From assembly GCA_041501125.1 (NCBI GenBank), contig JBGQNO010000004.1:1-49053 (forward strand): a stretch of 49,053 bases of DNA, given 5' to 3'. The notes under the pieces were generated by a model that worked only from the letters and a program-made list of their open reading frames with translations, ran no database searches and was not told the DNA's origin. Within the stretch, counting starts at the first letter, position 1, and each line of letters begins with the position of its first letter. A program made the position numbers and the translations under genes. Positions 12,723-34,684 of this stretch are shown here, in pieces. The stretch is from Candidatus Nanoarchaeia archaeon. GTDB lineage: Archaea > Nanobdellota > Nanobdellia > Pacearchaeales > GW2011-AR1.

Positions 12723-13618
12723 TTTAGCTTCTCTCTATTATTTAATAAATTATGACTTATTAACCTTTTCACTTCTCTTTGCTTGTTTACATTAAGCTCA
12801 AAATAAATTGTTCCGATACCATTTCTTCTTTTGCCGATTCTTGATTCAAGATTATATAAATTATTTAAAGTTTTTTGCAATTTTATTAAATTCTCTTCTT
12901 TATTTGAAAATATTCTTACAACCCCGTTACTCTTTCCAATAACTGCTTTTTGTTTTAATAAATATCTCACAAATTCTTTTTGCTTATTTCTTTTTGCAGG
13001 AAATTTCCAATAATAGTCCATAAAATCATTCATTATGAGGTCTAATTTTTGCTTCTTTGATGGATGTAAAAGTCCTATTTTGTCCTTAAAATTTGAGATA
13101 TTTGCTTTTCCGTATATGTACAATGAATAAATATCCCTCGTGGATCGCTTTGTAACCTTGCAACTAATTCCTAACTTCTTGAGAGAATCCCTCACTTGAT
13201 ATATGCCTGTTTCATTAACGCAATCTGCACCAATATGCCTATTTTGATGATGTTTACAGGTAACCCAGCCCTCGCAATCAAAGTAAGCTCTCAGCCATAT
13301 TTTCAAAAGGTTTTTATTTAATTTTGGCATTCTCCATTCCCAGGAGTAAAACGAACCGAATTCATTTGTTAATTTTTCATAAATTTCCTTTGAACCAAGT
13401 CTGCATCTTTGTCCCTCAATTAGGTATGGTTTAATGCCAAAGTAATCATTAAATTTTCTTTGGAAATCCTTCAATAATACCAAACTTGTATTTCTTAATC
13501 CCATCATGTAATATTTATGTTTTTGTGTCGGTGGATTTTTAATAACATAACCGTCTGCGCAGAGATAGGCATGAACAGCAGCAAGGTTTTCATCAAATCT
13601 CATGTAATCATAAGGCAT
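12701..13618 (-). CDS. Free-standing LAGLIDADG (intein DOD-type) homing endonuclease
   Basis: Two motifs, LAAVHAYLCADG and WLRAYFDCEG, plus a block-H-like IGLLHPSKKQKL; no intein splicing termini. Confidence 0.85.
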   Translation of the reverse strand: MPYDYMRFDENLAAVHAYLCADGYVIKNPPTQKHKYYMMGLRNTSLVLLKDFQRKFNDYFGIKPYLIEGQRCRLGSKEIYEKLTNEFGSFYSWEWRMPKLNKNLLKIWLRAYFDCEGWVTCKHHQNRHIGADCVNETGIYQVRDSLKKLGISCKVTKRSTRDIYSLYIYGKANISNFKDKIGLLHPSKKQKLDLIMNDFMDYYWKFPAKRNKQKEFVRYLLKQKAVIGKSNGVVRIFSNKEENLIKLQKTLNNLYNLESRIGKRRNGIGTIYFELNVNKQREVKRLISHNLLNNREKLKWLKLRR

Positions 13619-13666
13619 TTGCTTATTTTATACCTTATGTTTATCTGGTAAATAGTAACATCTTAA

Positions 13667-25651: not shown

Positions 25652-27316
25652 ATGAAAGAGGTTATTGTCAATTTTCTTGCAAAGCATATCAACCTGGATA
25701 AAGAACTGATATCCAATGCACTGGAGATTCCACCGGATTCCAGTCTCGGTGACTATGCATTCCCGTGCTTTGTTCTGGCCAAGGTCATGAGGAGAAGTCC
25801 AGTCGATATAGCTACTTTGCTTGCTGGCGAGCTCGGAGCAAAACTTCCTAAGGAAATATCCGGAACAAATGCCAATGGCCCGTATCTGAACTTCTTTGTC
25901 AATAAGAAAATTTTCCTTGAGAACACAATAAACACAATCTTGAAGGAAAAAGAGAAATTCGGATGCTGCAAGCTTGGTAAGGGAAAGAAAGTACTAATCG
26001 AGCACACAAGCCTAAACCCAAACTCAGACCCTCACGTTGGCAGGATAAGAAACTCGCTCATAGGAGACTGCATCTCAAGAATTATGAAATTCCACGGCTT
26101 CGATGTTGAAACTCACTTTTATGTTAATGATGTCAGCAAGCAGGTAGCGATGCTTGTCCTTAAATGCAAGGCAAATGAAAAATTTTCTGATTTGCTGAAA
26201 AGATATGTTGAGGTTACAAAAGAAATGGAGAAAAAACCAGAGCTTGAGAAGCAAGTATTCGGGCTGCTTGAAAAATTCGAGAAGAATGACAAGCCAACAC
26301 AGGAAAAATTCAGGAAGATTGTCAAGATAGCAGTAACCGGTCAGCAGAAAATCCTCGCCAGGCTTGGAATTAATTTTGACAAGTTTGACTATGAGTCAGA
26401 TTATATTTCTGAAGGAGAAAAGATTCTCAAGGCTCTTGATAACACCGGAAAACTCTTTACTGATGAAGAGAACCGCAAGGTGCTTGATGAAAAGGGCTTT
26501 GGTTTGGAGCAGAAAATGAAAGTGCCTGTTTTTGTCCTGACAAGAAGCGATGGCACCGGGCTGTATGCTTTAAGAGACATTGCTTATACAATACACAAAT
26601 TAAGCCTTGCTCCAAGAAATATTCTTGTGCTTGGCGAGGACCAAAAGCTTTACTTTGAGCAGGTAAAGGCAGCCTTGAAGATTCTTAACTACAATTCTCC
26701 TGAAATTGTTCATTATTCCTATGTGCTCATACAAACAAAGGAAGGTCCAGCCAAGATGTCAACCCGAAAAGGTGAGCTTGTCCTGATGTCTGATTTTATG
26801 AAAGAAGCAACAGAAAAAGCAGCGTCTGAGATTAAAAAGAGAAAAACAAAGGGAAATGCCAAGAAAATTGCCAATGGTGCCATAAAATTTGCAATGTTAA
26901 GGAATGACCCAAACAAGAATATAGTGTTTGACTGGGATACTGCATTGAACTTTGAAGGCGAATCCGGCCCTTACCTGCAATATAGCTATGCTCGAGCATC
27001 AAGCATAATGAAAAAAGCAAAGTCCAAGATGCCTGGAAAAATAAAGGTCATCAGTCTTTGTGAGAAAGAAGTCGAACTTGCCAAGAAACTGGCAGAGTTT
27101 CCAACACTAGCTGAACAAGTCTATGTAAAAATGGACCCTAGCCTGCTGGCAAACTATGTTTTCAAGCTTTCTCAAGTCTTTAACGAGTTCTATCATGCCT
27201 GTCCTGTCATTAAAAGTCAGGAAAAAAAGCAAAGAATTGGGGTTGTCCAGGCGTTCTTGTATATCCAAAAGCTAGCTCTTGGATTATTAGGCATAGAAGT
27301 TATGGAAGAAATGTAG
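25652..27316 (+). CDS. argS: Arginyl-tRNA synthetase
   Basis: GDYAFPCF, GPYLNF, HVGR (HIGH variant), KMSTRKG, FEGESGPYLQYSYARASSI, DALR domain; start refined to the ATG at 25652. Confidence 0.97.
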   Translation: MKEVIVNFLAKHINLDKELISNALEIPPDSSLGDYAFPCFVLAKVMRRSPVDIATLLAGELGAKLPKEISGTNANGPYLNFFVNKKIFLENTINTILKEKEKFGCCKLGKGKKVLIEHTSLNPNSDPHVGRIRNSLIGDCISRIMKFHGFDVETHFYVNDVSKQVAMLVLKCKANEKFSDLLKRYVEVTKEMEKKPELEKQVFGLLEKFEKNDKPTQEKFRKIVKIAVTGQQKILARLGINFDKFDYESDYISEGEKILKALDNTGKLFTDEENRKVLDEKGFGLEQKMKVPVFVLTRSDGTGLYALRDIAYTIHKLSLAPRNILVLGEDQKLYFEQVKAALKILNYNSPEIVHYSYVLIQTKEGPAKMSTRKGELVLMSDFMKEATEKAASEIKKRKTKGNAKKIANGAIKFAMLRNDPNKNIVFDWDTALNFEGESGPYLQYSYARASSIMKKAKSKMPGKIKVISLCEKEVELAKKLAEFPTLAEQVYVKMDPSLLANYVFKLSQVFNEFYHACPVIKSQEKKQRIGVVQAFLYIQKLALGLLGIEVMEEM

Positions 27317-27556
27317 TGTGAAATATATTCTATAAAGTGTATATTACAGTGTATATATTAAACAATATAGTTAATTATTGGGCTCATTAGTGTTAATAAG
27401 CCGTATAAGTGCCAAATACACACGCAATAGCCTTTTTTGTTGTAACTCAATGATTTCTTGGTTTTAATTTATAAACTTAACCCTTACTTAGACAAACCTT
27501 ATAAACCAGAAAACCGGTGTAAGAATGCTTACTTTCAAAAGTAAGAGGAGGATAGA

Positions 27557-27598
27557 ATGGCAAAACCAAAAGATCCAGCTCAACCACCAGCAGCTTAA
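27557..27598 (+). CDS. Candidate 13-aa small protein MAKPKDPAQPPAA (not in the ORF track)
   Basis: AGGAGG Shine-Dalgarno 5 nt before the ATG, TTATAAA box at 27499, flanking hairpins and a downstream T-tract. Confidence 0.55.
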   Translation: MAKPKDPAQPPAA

Positions 27599-27709
27599 AA
27601 CTGCGTGATAGACTGAATCCAGTCGATTATACTTTTTCTTTATTTTTCTTATTTTTTACCTATATTGTGCTAAAGTAAATATTTTTAACCTACCAGTCTA
27701 TATTTTGAG

Positions 27710-29029
27710 ATGCCAAAGTCAGTTTATTTTGAAACTTATGGATGCTCAGCAAACCAGAACAATACTGAAATAATACAAGGCTTGTTAGTTAAAGCAGGCT
27801 ACAATCTAGCTAAGAATTCTGAAAAAGCTGATTTTATAGTTATTAACTCATGCATTGTCAAAGGACCAACTGAAAATAGGATTAAATCCAGAATAAACGA
27901 ACTTTCCTCGCTTGGCAAGCAAATTATTGTTGCAGGTTGCATGCCAGATGTCAGAAAATCAGAGCTAAGCAAGTTAAATGTCAAACTTCTTGGAACAAAG
28001 AGCATTAAGTCTATAGTCAAACTTCTTGAGTCAGATTCTAAAGAGCTATTTAATAACAAAGAGATTAAGCTTGACAACTGCAAAATAAGCAGAAACCCGT
28101 GCGTCTCTATCACCCAAATCTCAGAAGGCTGTCTTGGAAACTGCTCTTATTGCGCAACCAGGTTAGCCAAAGGAAACCTTTTCTCATTCCCAGAACAAGA
28201 AATTCTGGCAAGCATTGAACACGACTTAACTAAAGGAGCTAAAGAAATCTGGGTGACAAGCCAGGACAATGCAATTTATGGCATTGATAAAGGCAAACCT
28301 AGACTTGCTGAGTTGTTAAACAAGATAATCAGTCTGCCTTATGAGTTTATGTTGAGAATAGGAATGCTTAATCCAAAAGCAACATCTGAAATCAAGGAAC
28401 AGCTGGCAGAAATAATGAAAAATCCAAAAGTTTACAAATTCCTGCATATTCCAGTTCAGTCAGGCTCAAACAAAATCCTCAAAGCCATGAACAGGAACTA
28501 TACAAAAGAGGATTTTGTTGAGTTAATTAAATTCTTTAAACAGCAGCTTCCGGAAATTTCCATTGCAACAGACATAATTGTAGGTTTTCCTGGCGAGTCT
28601 GAGGAAGATTTCAAGGAAACTTCCAGTTTAATAAAAGAAATCAAGCCAGATTTCATTAATGTAAGCAGATTCTGGCCAATGCAAGGCACTGAAGCAGCCA
28701 GAATGAAACAGATTCCAGCAGAAATCATGGGACAACGAGCAATAGAAATACTCAGGCTTTACAAATCTCAGCTTGACAATCAAAGCTGGACTGGCAAAAA
28801 AGAAAAATGCCTAATCAATTTGAAAAACAAGCGAGGCTTCTTTGCTAGAAATTCAAACTACAAAAGAATCTTGGTTGAAAATGCCCAGCAGTCGGATTTG
28901 GGAAAATTTGTTGACATTGAGGTTACAGGAACTCTGAAAAACTATTTGAGGGGAAAAATCTTAAGATTAAAAAAATCCCTTAAACCACTCACCAACTTTT
29001 ATTGCCCAGCCAGTAAATCCAAGTCTTAA
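27710..29029 (+). CDS. tRNA methylthiotransferase, MtaB/CDKAL1-like (t6A37 to ms2t6A)
   Basis: UPF0004 N-terminus (TYGCSAN, INSC.VK, VAGC), radical SAM GCLGNCSYC, DIIVGFPGE, C-terminal TRAM-like domain. Confidence 0.88.
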   Translation: MPKSVYFETYGCSANQNNTEIIQGLLVKAGYNLAKNSEKADFIVINSCIVKGPTENRIKSRINELSSLGKQIIVAGCMPDVRKSELSKLNVKLLGTKSIKSIVKLLESDSKELFNNKEIKLDNCKISRNPCVSITQISEGCLGNCSYCATRLAKGNLFSFPEQEILASIEHDLTKGAKEIWVTSQDNAIYGIDKGKPRLAELLNKIISLPYEFMLRIGMLNPKATSEIKEQLAEIMKNPKVYKFLHIPVQSGSNKILKAMNRNYTKEDFVELIKFFKQQLPEISIATDIIVGFPGESEEDFKETSSLIKEIKPDFINVSRFWPMQGTEAARMKQIPAEIMGQRAIEILRLYKSQLDNQSWTGKKEKCLINLKNKRGFFARNSNYKRILVENAQQSDLGKFVDIEVTGTLKNYLRGKILRLKKSLKPLTNFYCPASKSKS

Positions 29030-32000
29030 ACACAACCCATTTGTGCAATAATGCCCTGTAGGGCATTTGACATTTTCACCCAGTGCAACACTGCCTTGGC
29101 AATACCACTCTTTTAGCGTGCCGTCTTTGTTGCAGCCATCTGTACTTGTCTCTGTTGTACCGTCTGCCTTTACCACTATTGTGCTGCCTTTCACAAGATA
29201 GTTCTTTCCATTGTCGCTATCTTGACATGTTGCAGTTATATTCTGTGGCGTGGCAACACAAGCACCATCATTGCAGGAATAACCTTGCGGACAAATGTAA
29301 ATATTGTTTATACAACTTTTTCCATCAGCACTGCAAGATTTCTCATTTAGGCGTATCACCGAAGGATTCTGTGAATCAGGCAAACATATATCTGGGGCAT
29401 CTTCGCCCGGACTTATGCATGTCCCTTTAACATAATAATTTATGCCACCATCGCTGTCCTTGCATGTTGGTGTAACTTGCTGGGCTGGCGCACTCAAACA
29501 TTTTCCATCCTGGCATCCATACTGACAAGTATAAGCCTCTGATCTTAATATTCCAGCAGGATCTCCAACTGCTCCACAAAACCACTCTCTCAAAAGAACA
29601 TCAGACTGGCAAAAATCAGATTCAGTACGCCCAGGAATTGTTATAGTTCCCTTGATATTATAATTCTTACCTTCATCAGTATCAGCACAAGTTGGCTGTA
29701 CTGTTTGTTTCAAACAAGCACCATCACTGCATCCATAAGGACAAGCATAAACTTGTTTGAATATATCAGTTAGCAAACTGCAAACACCATCAGAAGCATC
29801 ATTCTCCTCAACGTAATACTCCATTAAATTATTACTGTCTGCACAGTAGTCTGTCACACAATTACTTCCCATGCAAGCAACTCCTTTAACCTCATAATTA
29901 ATTCCACCATCAGATTCCTTGCAGTTTATTGTCTGGTTTTGTACAGCTTGAATACATGCGCCATTCTCGCACTTATAACCGCTTGGACAACTTACAATCT
30001 CTCTTAACCAAGTCGTAGAATTAACACAATAAAACTCTCTTAATTTACTTGTATCATCACACATATCAGAATTGCTTCCTGCTACTGGCGGCTTGCAATC
30101 TCCACAAATTCCGTAGACGCTTCCTCGTTTTAAGTAATCTCTGCCATTGTCAGTATCAGTGCATGTTATGTTTGATATTGTTTTAGGCAAGCAAACTCCA
30201 TTTTTACATCCATTTGTACATTTATACTTTAAAATATTAAGCTTATTTGCATCGCAATAACCTTCTCCTAGCCATTCACTAGAAGGCGTTTCATCCCAAG
30301 TTGTTGGGTCTAAACACTTGTCTTTATTTGACACAAAAGTTCCATTATATATCCCTGAGAAATTTCCTTGAGTATAATAGTTAATTCCACCGTCGCTGTC
30401 AGTGCATGTCGTTGTCTGGTTTGCGACTTGAACGCAGGCACCATCCACGCAATTTCCAGGGCAAGTGTATTTTATACTGGCTGATTGATTATTTGAGCAA
30501 TAATACTCATTCACCATAAATCCTTTGTCTCTTTCCCAAGAACAGAAATCTATTTTGGTAATATTATTGACTGTTGTGTTTCCTTTCAAAAAGAAATTTT
30601 TTCCATTGTCAGTATCAGTACATGTCATATTTGTAACATTAGTTACAATTTCCTTTATACAAATGCCATTCTCACAAGTCTCATCACTTGCGCACTTAAT
30701 CCAAGCTCCATTTTGGCAAACTAAGCTTTTATTTATTGAGCAGCTTCCAGATAAAATAGTTTTGTTGCAAATGGCCAGGTGCGTGTTTCCACTGAGGAAC
30801 GGACAACCAACCATATTGTCATTTCCACATACATTGCTTGTGCAAAATTCTGTAGGAAACTGATAAGTTTCAGTACAGTTTTTTGGAGCTAACTTCTCGC
30901 AGTTGTAACAACCTGTGTGCTGGGGATCGTGCATAAACATTGGCCAAGCCATATTAGAAGGATCGTAATCTACTTGTAAGTTAAATATATATAATTTACC
31001 GAATTGATAAGAACACCCAGGATCACATTTAAGAGGAGAAGTCATAACAGCTAAATCAGTTTTGCCATCATTGTCAACATCTTCTATTACTATCTCTTTA
31101 ACAAAATCTACATCGCTCTGTGTAGGAATTATAATTTTCTCCTGTAATGAACCATCAAAATTAAAAATCCAGATATTTGAAGATTTCCCTTCCCAGAAGC
31201 GAGGCCTACTTCCTAAAATAATCTCTTGTGTTCCATCATTGTCTATATCTCCTGCAACAAGTGTTCTACCACTTTCATATATTGATTGGCCGTAGTCAAT
31301 CTCAAAACGACGATTCAGATTTCCTTCTATATCAAAGATAGCAATTGAATCCCTTTCTACCGCCCAAGTTCCAATTTGAGAAGCGACAATATAAAACTTA
31401 TTATCTTGTTCAAGAAGAATTACTCTGTTAGTAATATAACCAAAAGTATTAAATTCATTTAAGATTTCTCCAGAAGAATCAAGAACATAAATCTTAGAAA
31501 CATAAGAGTTCGCATCTGCATAAGACCTATTTAAGTCAATATAATCAAAAAATAGGATAAATTCTTTTTCATTATCATTATTTATATCTCCCGATATTAA
31601 AAAGTCCTGATAAATCTGCGGCTGCACCTTCTGTATAGAATTGAAATCAAAAATAAGAGAAGAGTTTAATAATTCTCCAGAAGAATCATATTTTTCTAAT
31701 TGAATTTTATTTTCATTGATATTCCCGGAGATAAGTGCGATATACTTTACTAATCCAACCATCTCATTTGTGAGTATCAAAGGGCGAATATAAAATCCAT
31801 ATCTGTAGTCATTAGGGTTGAATGAGTCTGTATTAATATTTGCAAAAGGCTTCGAAAAAATAGTAGTTAAGAGGTTTCCAGAATAGTCAAAAAACTTAAA
31901 ACTTGATGCGATATTTTTAATCGTACTAAGTATATCTCCCTTCCATTCATCTCTTAAATATTCTCCTAAAATTCTTTCACTAGAAGGAAAAATAAAAGGA

Positions 32001-34684
32001 TTTATATCTTGACTACTCCAGTATTCGGAAAATTCAGGATATAGTGAAATATAAGGCCATTTTTGTTTATAATTTAGATTTTCATCAAAAACCCCCAATG
32101 AACTATAGCATCTGCCAGGCACACCGTCATTTACTGTTTCATTTACTGTTCGAATGAATGCTAATAACTTGTTTTTTGAATTTAATGAGATAATAGAATT
32201 ACCAAACAAAAACCCTCCACAATCCCCATTTTTAAAATCAAGAATCTTGTATAACCCGGAAGGTTTCCAAATTTCAATTACATTTTTAGAAATATACCAC
32301 CCTCCTCCCAAAGCAATCGATTTATCTGAATTAAATATAATTTCTTTATCTTGATCATCATTTATATCTGCAACAGACAATGAAATTGGGGCTTTGAAAG
32401 TTATGGTATGATATACTCCTACTCCCTCTCTTAATCGCTTAAAAATTATGACTTTTAAGGGAACACTTTCTACAGCCTTGCCAGTTTTTGTATATGCCTC
32501 AATTTTTAACTCGTATGAATCGTCTTCAAAAGAATCCACGTTTACACTTCCTATTTCTCCACTTTTTAAGGGTTCGGAAGATGCATGAACTGTCTGCCAG
32601 TCTTCTCCTATTTTTCTCATTTTTAATTCATATCTTGCATACTCCCCATTGTCAACAGAACCTAAAATTTTCTCTGTAGGCTGTATCATATAATTTTCTT
32701 CATTTCCTGCTTGTGTAATATAAAAGTTTTTTATTTCAAAAATTATTGTGTCTTTAAACTTTATTCCCTTGCTGTTTTGCACTTCAAGTTGTAATATAAC
32801 TTGGCCGTTATCAAAAAGAGTAGTGTCCAAATTATATAACTGTGTCCCAGAGGGTTGTGTATCCGAACTAGTAATTATTTCTCTCCAGCCTCTTTCTAAA
32901 TGTTCTAGATAAAGAGTATATTTAGAAAAATTACTTACATTGATTATAGCATCTAAACTAATAACTCCAGAAACTTTTGATTCAACAGGCAATATTTCAA
33001 CTTTCCCCGATCCTTCTAACTCTACAGCCCCAAAAACATCAGTCCTTCCATAACCTTGTGTTGTTACAGGTTCATTGATATCAACAGCAGTATTCCTCAA
33101 AGCAGCTTTGATTTCTTCCGGCGTCCAGTCAGGTTTTTTCTGTTTAAGCAAAGCAGCAGCTCCTGCAACATGCGGTGTTGCCATGCTTGTTCCTGAAATT
33201 GCAACATGCTTGTCGTCTAAACACTGGTAACTTGCCCACGGCTTGTTTGAAGATTGTGCAGCACAAATATTAACACCCGGTGCAGTAACATCTGGCTTAA
33301 CTATTGCTCTTTCATTTCCCTCGCTGTCTGTCCAGATTACAGGTCCTCTTGAACTAAAACTTGCAATCTTATCTTGCTTATCTGTAGCACCAACAGTTAT
33401 TGCTTTCCTTGCTGTTCCTGGACTTCCAATTGTATTCTCTCCAGGCCCAGAATTTCCAGCAGCAATAACTGCAACAACACCAGCATCAACAGCATTATCA
33501 ATTGCTTGGCTTGGTGCATCATCAGGATTTCCATAACCTCCAAGACTCATTGAAATTATATCAACATGGTCTGAGAAATTTCCATCTTGATTGGGGTCAA
33601 CAGCTCTTTCTATTCCTGCAATTACTCCCTCAAAAGAACCACTACCACCAGCGTCTAAAACTTTGTAAGCATAAAGTTTAGCATCAGGCGCAACACCCTT
33701 TAGTGTTCCGTTTCCCGCCGCTGTTGCAGCAACATGTGTTCCGTGTCCCATGTCATCCATAGGATCAGCATCATTATTAATAAAATCCCAGCCACCAACA
33801 ACCTTGCAACCAGCTCCAAAACATCCTCCTAAATCCGGATGTGTGTAGTCAACTCCAGTATCAATAATCGCAATGCTAATTCCTTTTCCTGTCAAACAAT
33901 CTTTTCCAGAACTTGCACACGAGTTTCCCTCGCTGTCTAACAACCAGACATCATCAGCATTAATCAAAGGAACAGAATCCATCAACATTGCTTTAACTTC
34001 GTAATTAGGCTGAACACTTTTCACTCCATCAACTTTCTCAATTTCTTTTGCTTCTTCTGCTGAAATGTTTAAGGCAACACCATTAAACACTTTTTCATAG
34101 TCATTTAAAACTTTTAATTCGCTGTTGTCTATTGCATGTCCTGTAATTTTACTCAAAAATCCAGATATCGCGCTGCCAGTTATTTTCTCACTTTTTAATT
34201 TAGCAAGCTTGCTCTTTATTCTCTCTTTTACATCTTCATGATTTTTCTTAAGCTCTTTTTCATAATCTTTTACTTCATCTGCAATATCTTCAGGCATAAT
34301 TTTAATATATTTAGTATATGTTCCTGCAACTTTTGTTCCCACTTTATATAGCGGCGCTGCTTTGGCCTTTTCAACATAATTCTTGTTCTTTTCTGCTTCT
34401 TGTTTTAATTCTGCTTCCTTAACAACAAGTGGCGCATCCTCAAACTCAACAATATAACCTTGAAACTTAGGTGTTTCAGCCCCAGTGATGCTTTGTGATA
34501 CAAACATTCCCATTCCTCCATCTGTAACAGAAGTTATTACTCCTTCTTGCCCCAAAACCATTCCAGGTGTAACTTGTCCTATTGTTTGTTGGTTTTCATT
34601 TTTATCAGTAACTAATGCGTAAGTTAAACTTACACACAATATTAACAACATAAATGATATAAGAAACACACTCCTTTTTTGCAT
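28967..34684 (-). CDS. Large secreted S8 subtilase with I9-like prodomain, FG-GAP-like propeller and seven Cys-rich repeats
   Basis: Catalytic triad IIDTG / HGTHVA / GTSMATPH; DIN.D.D.E repeats; CxD[ST]DxG repeats. Confidence 0.92.
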   Translation of the reverse strand: MQKRSVFLISFMLLILCVSLTYALVTDKNENQQTIGQVTPGMVLGQEGVITSVTDGGMGMFVSQSITGAETPKFQGYIVEFEDAPLVVKEAELKQEAEKNKNYVEKAKAAPLYKVGTKVAGTYTKYIKIMPEDIADEVKDYEKELKKNHEDVKERIKSKLAKLKSEKITGSAISGFLSKITGHAIDNSELKVLNDYEKVFNGVALNISAEEAKEIEKVDGVKSVQPNYEVKAMLMDSVPLINADDVWLLDSEGNSCASSGKDCLTGKGISIAIIDTGVDYTHPDLGGCFGAGCKVVGGWDFINNDADPMDDMGHGTHVAATAAGNGTLKGVAPDAKLYAYKVLDAGGSGSFEGVIAGIERAVDPNQDGNFSDHVDIISMSLGGYGNPDDAPSQAIDNAVDAGVVAVIAAGNSGPGENTIGSPGTARKAITVGATDKQDKIASFSSRGPVIWTDSEGNERAIVKPDVTAPGVNICAAQSSNKPWASYQCLDDKHVAISGTSMATPHVAGAAALLKQKKPDWTPEEIKAALRNTAVDINEPVTTQGYGRTDVFGAVELEGSGKVEILPVESKVSGVISLDAIINVSNFSKYTLYLEHLERGWREIITSSDTQPSGTQLYNLDTTLFDNGQVILQLEVQNSKGIKFKDTIIFEIKNFYITQAGNEENYMIQPTEKILGSVDNGEYARYELKMRKIGEDWQTVHASSEPLKSGEIGSVNVDSFEDDSYELKIEAYTKTGKAVESVPLKVIIFKRLREGVGVYHTITFKAPISLSVADINDDQDKEIIFNSDKSIALGGGWYISKNVIEIWKPSGLYKILDFKNGDCGGFLFGNSIISLNSKNKLLAFIRTVNETVNDGVPGRCYSSLGVFDENLNYKQKWPYISLYPEFSEYWSSQDINPFIFPSSERILGEYLRDEWKGDILSTIKNIASSFKFFDYSGNLLTTIFSKPFANINTDSFNPNDYRYGFYIRPLILTNEMVGLVKYIALISGNINENKIQLEKYDSSGELLNSSLIFDFNSIQKVQPQIYQDFLISGDINNDNEKEFILFFDYIDLNRSYADANSYVSKIYVLDSSGEILNEFNTFGYITNRVILLEQDNKFYIVASQIGTWAVERDSIAIFDIEGNLNRRFEIDYGQSIYESGRTLVAGDIDNDGTQEIILGSRPRFWEGKSSNIWIFNFDGSLQEKIIIPTQSDVDFVKEIVIEDVDNDGKTDLAVMTSPLKCDPGCSYQFGKLYIFNLQVDYDPSNMAWPMFMHDPQHTGCYNCEKLAPKNCTETYQFPTEFCTSNVCGNDNMVGCPFLSGNTHLAICNKTILSGSCSINKSLVCQNGAWIKCASDETCENGICIKEIVTNVTNMTCTDTDNGKNFFLKGNTTVNNITKIDFCSWERDKGFMVNEYYCSNNQSASIKYTCPGNCVDGACVQVANQTTTCTDSDGGINYYTQGNFSGIYNGTFVSNKDKCLDPTTWDETPSSEWLGEGYCDANKLNILKYKCTNGCKNGVCLPKTISNITCTDTDNGRDYLKRGSVYGICGDCKPPVAGSNSDMCDDTSKLREFYCVNSTTWLREIVSCPSGYKCENGACIQAVQNQTINCKESDGGINYEVKGVACMGSNCVTDYCADSNNLMEYYVEENDASDGVCSLLTDIFKQVYACPYGCSDGACLKQTVQPTCADTDEGKNYNIKGTITIPGRTESDFCQSDVLLREWFCGAVGDPAGILRSEAYTCQYGCQDGKCLSAPAQQVTPTCKDSDGGINYYVKGTCISPGEDAPDICLPDSQNPSVIRLNEKSCSADGKSCINNIYICPQGYSCNDGACVATPQNITATCQDSDNGKNYLVKGSTIVVKADGTTETSTDGCNKDGTLKEWYCQGSVALGENVKCPTGHYCTNGLCLRLGFTGWAIKVGEWFKGFF

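Follow-up and report, generated by a model that had tools for sequence, protein, structure and literature searches.

A predicted Shine-Dalgarno-led mini-gene for a 13-residue peptide between argS and mtaB in a small-genome DPANN archaeon

Introduction

In bacteria, very short open reading frames (sORFs) are constituents of leader-peptide attenuators, such as trpL, hisL, pheL, and mgtL, and of dual-function RNAs, such as SgrS/SgrT and RNAIII/hld. In archaea, Ribo-seq and peptidomics have yielded catalogues of sORF-encoded proteins for Haloferax volcanii (PMC10117724) and Methanosarcina mazei (PMC11456600), and for many of the M. mazei sORFs, conservation limited to the genus has been reported (PMC11456600). 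One of the small RNAs of M. mazei, sRNA154, is reported to carry an sORF of 20 aa (PMC11456600).

The DNA analyzed here, called the window, is an entire 49-kb contig (49,053 nt) of a 625-kb genome that is 88% complete, and its host is a small-genome DPANN archaeon of the Pacearchaeota type, the records of its MtaB relatives being labelled Pacearchaeota, Nanoarchaeota, or just 'archaeon'. The spacer between argS and mtaB in this window holds a putative mini-gene with a Shine-Dalgarno (SD) sequence and a 13-codon ORF. Like the catalogued archaeal sORFs, it is intergenic and unannotated, has its own expression signals, is limited to a genus, and encodes no domain; unlike most of them, it is far shorter (12–13 aa) and known from sequence alone, and its host is an uncultured DPANN archaeon in whose mainly leaderless genome it is SD-led. 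With dual-function sRNAs it has in common a predicted transcript of roughly 110 nt, terminal hairpins, a very short ORF, and a nucleotide conservation that exceeds that of the peptide, but no base-pairing target was found for it in the genome, it is SD-led rather than leaderless, and the ORF occupies most of the unstructured body. As in bacterial attenuators, an ORF of 13–17 codons with an SD is closely followed by a hairpin and a T tract, and a gene in the same orientation lies downstream; in contrast to them, the unit has neither conserved regulatory codons nor a conserved antiterminator, the host is an archaeon, and the downstream mtaB appears self-promoted and leaderless, with sister lineages that lack the unit having an unchanged mtaB.

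Organization of the locus

The spacer comprises 393 nt (27317–27709), and both flanking genes lie on the plus strand. The original prediction, made from the letters of the DNA, described a self-contained transcription unit for a Pro/Lys/Ala peptide upstream of a gene for an MtaB-like enzyme. Reading the sequence directly, we found all of its features in place, and the domain content of the downstream product (below) is that of an MtaB-like protein, which the source records name as an ms2t6A enzyme. The features of the region are listed here by coordinates in the window.

25631–27316, plus strand: arginyl-tRNA synthetase gene argS (Pfam Arg_tRNA_synt_N, tRNA-synt_1d, DALR_1)
27433–27438, plus strand: T6 tract of argS (read from sequence)
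27489–27509, plus strand: promoter, A-rich BRE-like stretch and TATA box TTATAAAC at 27499–27506 (genome-trained position weight matrix, PWM)
27527, plus strand: predicted transcription start, +/- 2 nt (deduced from how far the TATA box lies from the start in leaderless genes of this genome)
27528–27545, plus strand: 5'-terminal hairpin, CTTACTT (27528–27534) and AAGTAAG (27539–27545), loop TCAA
27546–27551, plus strand: SD sequence AGGAGG, directly 3' of the 5' stem (complementary to the 16S 3' end)
27557–27598, plus strand: sORF MAKPKDPAQPPAA and TAA (ATG at 27557, TAA at 27596–27598)
27605–27630, plus strand: 3' hairpin GTGAT-A-GACTG-AATC-CAGTC-G-ATTAT (fold prediction)
27633–27657, plus strand: oligo-T terminator tract T5, T3, T5, T2, T6 (read from sequence)
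27672–27692, plus strand: mtaB's own promoter, TATA-like ATTTTTAA at 27681–27688 (PWM score 6.7)
27710–29029, plus strand: mtaB, MtaB/CDKAL1-type methylthiotransferase (Pfam UPF0004, Radical_SAM, TRAM)

The predicted leader of the mini-gene measures 30 nt; the 5' hairpin begins one base after the predicted +1, and the SD is separated from the ATG by the 5-nt spacer ATAGA. The ORF would encode a 13-aa peptide, (M)AKPKDPAQPPAA. In the 3' hairpin, the core pairing of GACTG (27611–15) with CAGTC (27620–24) is extended by GTGAT/ATTAT, and a 600-nt scan found a single terminator-like site, that of the mini-gene itself, where 0.2 were expected. CCA is used for all four Pro residues and AAA for both Lys residues, as originally pointed out; this is a weak observation because CCA and AAA are already the commonest Pro and Lys codons of the genome (42% and 61%, respectively).

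There is no credible longer or antisense ORF in any frame of 27317–27709, and an overlapping 27-aa frame (MLTFKS...), the sole competitor of the sORF, was rejected, since its start is not conserved and a 2-nt insertion in two related loci (L075 and L076) breaks it. A tRNA search with ARAGORN placed no tRNA in the spacer, its sole match being a tRNA-Thr elsewhere. Rfam 15, applied to the whole window at the gathering score, returned only a tRNA at 24624–24696, and at E<=10 the region 27250–27760 gave one chance-level match of 13 bits against a gathering score of 100. Inspection by eye revealed no proper pair of C and D boxes.

Several further elements lie around the unit. A second TATA-like box, TTTATAAAC, is located at 27469–27477, 30 nt upstream of the TATA box of the mini-gene; it is kept in the closest relatives and has a PWM score below 5. 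Just after the argS stop, at 27320–27360, there is an AT-rich imperfect palindrome with GTATAT-type repeats in it, whose position is kept in all relatives (e.g., GTATACTGGAAAGTATAT in L036) and which could be an argS 3' end structure or a binding site. On the other side, the 3' end of mtaB shares 63 nt with a 1905-aa ORF on the minus strand (28967–34684), whose product has an S8 subtilase domain, an I9 propeptide, and FG-GAP repeats. A large gene on the minus strand of L033, truncated where the contig ends, also begins inside the 3' end of mtaB, while in L034–L036, L038, L039, and L076 mtaB is followed by a TrmB-like gene, with one gene between them in L039. It is therefore probable that the giant protease gene was inserted into a conserved neighborhood, mtaB-trmB-ileS.

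Expression signals in the context of the genome

The 3' end of the 16S rRNA in this genome reads ...GGATCACCTCCT (...CACCTCCT-3' as RNA), i.e., CCTCCT or CCUCCU, and AGGAGG is therefore a perfect SD. Among 456 long ORFs, the motif TTTAWAAA forms a sharp peak at -29 to -22 from the ATG, and just 14 of the 456 leaders contain GGAGG, from which it follows that the genome is mainly leaderless. A promoter PWM was trained on these 456 leaderless long genes and run over the spacer, where the plus strand has two matches only, at 27489–27509 and 27672–27692. The promoter of the mini-gene scores 7.5, above the 99.9th percentile of genome positions and higher than 85% of gene promoters. The second match implies a +1 at 27710, which is the A of the mtaB ATG, and mtaB would thus be leaderless. 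With two matches, the mini-unit and mtaB appear to be separately promoted, and the 5' hairpin falls at the very start of the predicted RNA.

An SD followed by an ATG counts for little by itself. Crude intergenic DNA totalling about 95 kb contains GGAGG with an ATG 4–9 nt downstream 15 times against 7.7 +/- 2.4 in dinucleotide shuffles, so that about half of such intergenic pairs are expected by chance. In a genome-wide ranking of GGAGG+ATG ORFs of 5–100 aa by the promoter score of a 10–50 nt leader, the 13-aa ORF takes the 8th place. The ORFs of this kind with strong promoters and leaders of 20–44 nt include those for L7Ae, acidic stalk P1, treble-clef zinc-finger and zinc-ribbon proteins, DUF5679, and small membrane proteins, and multi-T-tract terminators follow most of the top-ranked small genes. 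A promoter with a short leader and GGAGG marks small, presumably highly expressed genes in this genome, and by its signals the mini-gene fits this class. It resembles the other members in its TTTATAAAC-type TATA box, its GGAGG leader within the range of 20–44 nt, and its multi-T-tract terminator, whereas they encode proteins of 40–97 aa with recognizable folds or membrane helices and it encodes 13 residues and carries an extra hairpin at each end. That the peptide may be abundant, as originally proposed, is suggested by signal strength only.

A second SD-led micro-ORF was seen in the genome on the minus strand of contig C10 (about 13606–13660): MCNCGCEKKKKKRK, 14 aa and rich in Cys and Lys, with GGAGG 5 nt upstream, a T-rich terminator, and a modest promoter score of 3.3. 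A similar Cys-rich poly-Lys sORF of 21 aa, MGCCCCGNEKPKIKKKPKKKK, stands after an SD in locus L048 (around 1511) of genus G221, which belongs to the same family. Besides the mini-gene, this genome offers at least one further candidate, MCNCGCEKKKKKRK, from the same recipe.

Conservation within a genus-level clade

Closer relatives of MtaB were drawn from a large protein collection, their contigs were retrieved, and the argS-mtaB spacers were compared. In the MtaB tree, nine related loci group together as a single clade (support 100/100), and all nine have argS, spacer, and mtaB in this order, with an SD-led sORF in the spacer. Conservation of an sORF upstream of mtaB, which the original prediction proposed to look for in relatives, thus extends through this clade, in which SD, ATG, stop, and frame are kept. 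The variants are as follows.

Window, L033, L034: AGGAGG, 5 nt to ATG, peptide MAKPKDPAQPPAA
L075, L076: AGGAGG, 7 nt to ATG, peptide MAKPQDPVKPAA
L036, L037, L038: GGGAGG, 5 nt to ATG, peptide MGDKKKDPAAPAA
L035: TGGAGG, 5 nt to ATG, long form, peptide MARKNKEIKPVQQPAEQPVQPEAAESDVEE
L039: AGGAGG, 6 nt to ATG, 34-aa relative of the L035 form

The short forms measure 12–13 aa and the long forms (L035/L039) 30–34 aa. In all nine loci GGAGGA is kept 5–7 nt before the ATG, and promoter, SD, ATG, and stop are intact; the promoter stretch CTTATAAACCA is kept in L033, L034, L075, and L076 and in L036–L038. Four indel events within the ORF have lengths of 3, 3, 3, and 12 nt, for which the chance of all being in frame is about (1/3)^4 = 0.012, and indels of other lengths are confined to sequence outside the ORF, those in the SD-ATG spacer being 2 nt and 1 nt. 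An alignment of 148 nt between the units of the window and L036 shows 84% identity (score 161 vs 28 +/- 6 when shuffled), while the remaining spacer gives no significant alignment (64 vs 53 +/- 7 when shuffled) and identity at the four-fold degenerate sites in argS and mtaB is 51–57%.

The 5' hairpin is invariant in L033, L034, L075, and L076, and its stem is kept in L036–L038 because the A->G change there turns one A-U pair into G.U. In L075 and L076, G27605->A converts a G.U pair of the 3' stem into A-U. The relatives have a hairpin in the same place before the T tract, of other sequence, and the T-tract stretch CTTTTTCTTTATTTTT is kept in all variants. In L039, the short unit survives only as a relic of its 3' end (z about 8.6), beside an intact long unit, and no locus is therefore devoid of an intact unit. 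Aligned with each other, the short and long forms score 50.5 vs 29.9 +/- 4.8 when shuffled, with most of the score coming from the SD-ATG-GCA segment; that they are homologous is probable but unproven, and the 30/34-aa form of L035/L039 is probably paralogous.

A 130-nt stretch is 100% identical between the window and L033/L034, which is no proof of selection because these genomes are recombination mosaics with other 200-nt runs of 100% identity. In argS, the middle third (window 26000–26950) has about 45–55% DNA identity to L033/L034, whereas both ends of the gene and the spacer have about 90%; in the ArgRS tree, the window groups with L075/L076, apart from L033/L034, and the MtaB tree differs. 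The pattern resembles a mosaic produced by recombination inside this aminoacyl-tRNA synthetase gene. The spacers have also taken up what look like small mobile or MITE-like insertions, namely extra segments of about 100 nt in L038 (about 1880–1990) and L039 (about 2640–2700), which bear the inverted repeats CTCAAGAAC...GTTCTTGAC and are absent from near-identical spacers (L036 vs L038).

Limits of the family

Beyond the clade, conservation of the sORF upstream of mtaB ends. The relatives in GTDB are of other genera only, with MtaB at most 56% identical, and no comparable sORF lies upstream of mtaB in the 22 family- and order-level loci, which are 22 of the 40 relatives searched (E<=1e-76) and carry mtaB without it. 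It is likewise absent from all three sister loci, whose MtaB is 56–59% identical. In these sisters, argS and mtaB are separated by a 45-nt gap (L040), an SFM1-like gene, or a 159-aa ORF, and mtaB has the same short TATA-bearing upstream region. The possibility that the mini-gene is a remnant of a longer gene was rejected, since the 159-aa protein that fills the spacer in L041 and L042 is unrelated. When 401 genomes of the order were searched with the pattern GGAGGAYN{2,3}AATGGSA, 37 of them had matches, against 6 control matches, and these were ordinary SD-led genes only, with no related peptide. A profile of the long form, run against 1.84 billion representative proteins, recovered nothing but its own two source sequences, and an MtaB scan of metagenome contigs yielded only a paralogue of 26% identity. 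By these searches, the mini-unit is a clade-restricted addition to a variable spacer and no conserved companion of mtaB.

Alternative explanations

Given the place of the unit directly upstream of mtaB on the same strand, the original prediction left open that the sORF is a leader peptide that senses Lys/Pro decoding, and it is conceivable that such an attenuator tunes read-through into mtaB by decoding of Lys(UUU) and Pro. Only 6 nt separate the stop codon from the extended terminator stem, and a terminating ribosome would thus cover the 5' arm of the stem; in L036 and L035/L039 the terminator stem extends into the end of the ORF. We know of no archaeal precedent for such an arrangement, and intrinsic termination in archaea proceeds mainly by oligo-T rather than hairpins. 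Against attenuation, mtaB has a strong promoter of its own at the exact leaderless distance, and outgroups without the unit have an equal mtaB layout, the L040 gap being 45 nt. The idea also fails because neither the Lys codons nor Pro-Pro are conserved: the Lys codons are AAA AAA in the window and AAG AAG AAA in L036, those of L075 (AAA, AAA) come with Lys5->Gln and Gln9->Lys (one Lys->Gln is also found in L076), and Pro-Pro is lost in both the L036 and the L075/L076 groups. The proposed alternative pairing GATCCAG/CTGAATC does exist, but it forms only 6 of 7 pairs, the central one being a C.A mismatch; neither the MFE fold nor the centroid fold contains it, and L036, L035, and L039 have not conserved it. 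An attenuator is therefore very unlikely, and nothing points to regulation of mtaB by the mini-unit. What stands of the original interpretation is the self-contained unit, with its own promoter, SD, and terminator kept in relatives and a separately promoted mtaB whose +1 falls exactly on its ATG. The neighborhood invites one more link, in which the radical-SAM methylthiotransferase next to it would act on the peptide as a substrate or RiPP-like precursor, much as RimO acts on an Asp of ribosomal protein S12. 'K/Q-D-P' is indeed common to the short forms; however, an equivalent Asp-Pro is missing from the long forms, the enzyme is built like a standard tRNA methylthiotransferase and is found without the sORF in sister lineages and throughout the order, and protease, transporter, and peptide-recognition domains are absent nearby, which makes this the least credible of the readings, with hardly any probability.

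A different question is whether the peptide or the RNA is what selection keeps. Over the 39 nt compared between the window and L075/L076, the ORF has three non-synonymous and no synonymous substitutions and a codon deletion (too few sites for dN/dS), while a single substitution is seen in the 5' leader and another in the 59-nt 3' part, and all that is common to the three short forms is 'DP' and a C-terminal 'PAA'. The blocks AAAGATCCAGCT and CACCAGCAGCTTAA are identical between the window and L036, third codon positions included, where four-fold sites of the neighboring genes are about 55% identical, and this indicates constraint on RNA or codon choice, not on protein alone. The peptide is thus fast-evolving, and the RNA signals are better kept. 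The functional product might accordingly be the RNA or the act of translation, i.e., a regulatory or dual-function RNA in which the peptide sequence is largely irrelevant and the 5' hairpin-SD module and the conserved blocks in a CA-rich unstructured body would matter; the ORF interior is the fastest-changing part between close relatives, the predicted transcript folds somewhat better than its shuffles (z = -2.7), and dual-function sRNAs with 20-aa sORFs are described in Methanosarcina mazei (PMC11456600). We consider this unlikely, although a serious contender. SD, ATG, stop, and frame are all kept and the indels respect the frame, no Rfam family matches, the long variants have no 5' hairpin and fold no better than shuffles, and the genome holds no antisense match of at least 13 nt to the transcript; antisense 11–12-mers number 57 against about 29 in a uniform-composition estimate, which is of the order of chance. 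Sequestration of the SD by the ORF-internal AUCCAGCUC was also considered and rejected, since the 7 of 9 pairs in the window meet an uncompensated GGAU->GGAC in L075 and L036. Translation of the sORF, for its part, has indirect but coherent support in a perfect SD within a mainly leaderless genome, the conserved ATG and stop, the in-frame indels, and the membership in the class of SD-led small genes. Should the unit nevertheless be a translation-dependent RNA device or a dual-function sRNA and not primarily a protein gene, a minority view with about one part in its favor to several against, selection would keep the promoter, the 5' hairpin-SD, the terminator, and a short CA-rich body that can be translated, with the peptide left to drift, and the RNA could possibly serve as a ribosome-engaging decoy or sensor, or as a regulator through the conserved nucleotide blocks; it would then be the first such element described in reduced, host-dependent archaea. 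Finally, the unit may be a decaying or neutral lineage-specific remnant, such as a truncated copy of the 30–34-aa form, with no present function. Its confinement to one genus-level clade, an ORF length that varies from 12 to 34 aa, the deletion of the short unit in L039, a near-neutral rate of peptide change, and a spacer that is an insertion hot spot would all agree with decay, but the unit is 84% identical where neutral sites are at about 55% and the flanking spacer cannot be aligned, and with promoter, SD, ATG, and stop undamaged in each of the nine loci, none of which lacks an intact unit, we hold neutrality to be improbable.

A proposed mini-gene and its significance

It is probable, in our judgment, that the locus is an independently transcribed, SD-led, and translated mini-gene of a genus-restricted, fast-evolving sORF family. 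The signals are present in the sequence and agree with models derived from this genome itself, and they are conserved, as are the reading frame and the start and stop codons; from these, we infer that the mini-gene is transcribed and translated. The BRE/TATA promoter would direct synthesis of a monocistronic mRNA of roughly 110 nt from about 27527, whose first 18 nt would form a stem-loop that probably guards the 5' end and leaves the SD single-stranded right behind it. AGGAGG would pair with CCUCCU of the 16S rRNA, and translation would begin at the ATG at 27557 to give a hydrophilic product of 13 residues, rich in Pro, Ala, and Lys and surely unstructured. The transcript would end at the hairpin and oligo-T, 50 nt before mtaB, which would be transcribed separately as a leaderless mRNA. 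In this mini-gene, the peptide, with 'DP', the C-terminal 'PAA', and otherwise its composition, rather than the act of translating it, would be the product that matters.

DPANN genomes are tiny, about 0.6 Mb here, and every element that they retain is expected to be useful. With no cultures of these organisms and with gene callers that skip ORFs under about 30 codons, hardly anything has been explored of their small proteomes and small RNAs. An ORF of 12–13 codons could nonetheless be recognized in this case, owing to the genome's promoter and SD models, its leaderless background, and metagenomic relatives for comparison. The tempting link of the mini-gene to the control of tRNA modification is removed as unsupported. 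What emerges from its signals and relatives is an archaeal sORF that is unusually short, with a clean signal set and a narrow distribution in an unexplored group, and which suggests that micro-genes of these organisms can be young, clade-restricted, and fast evolving.
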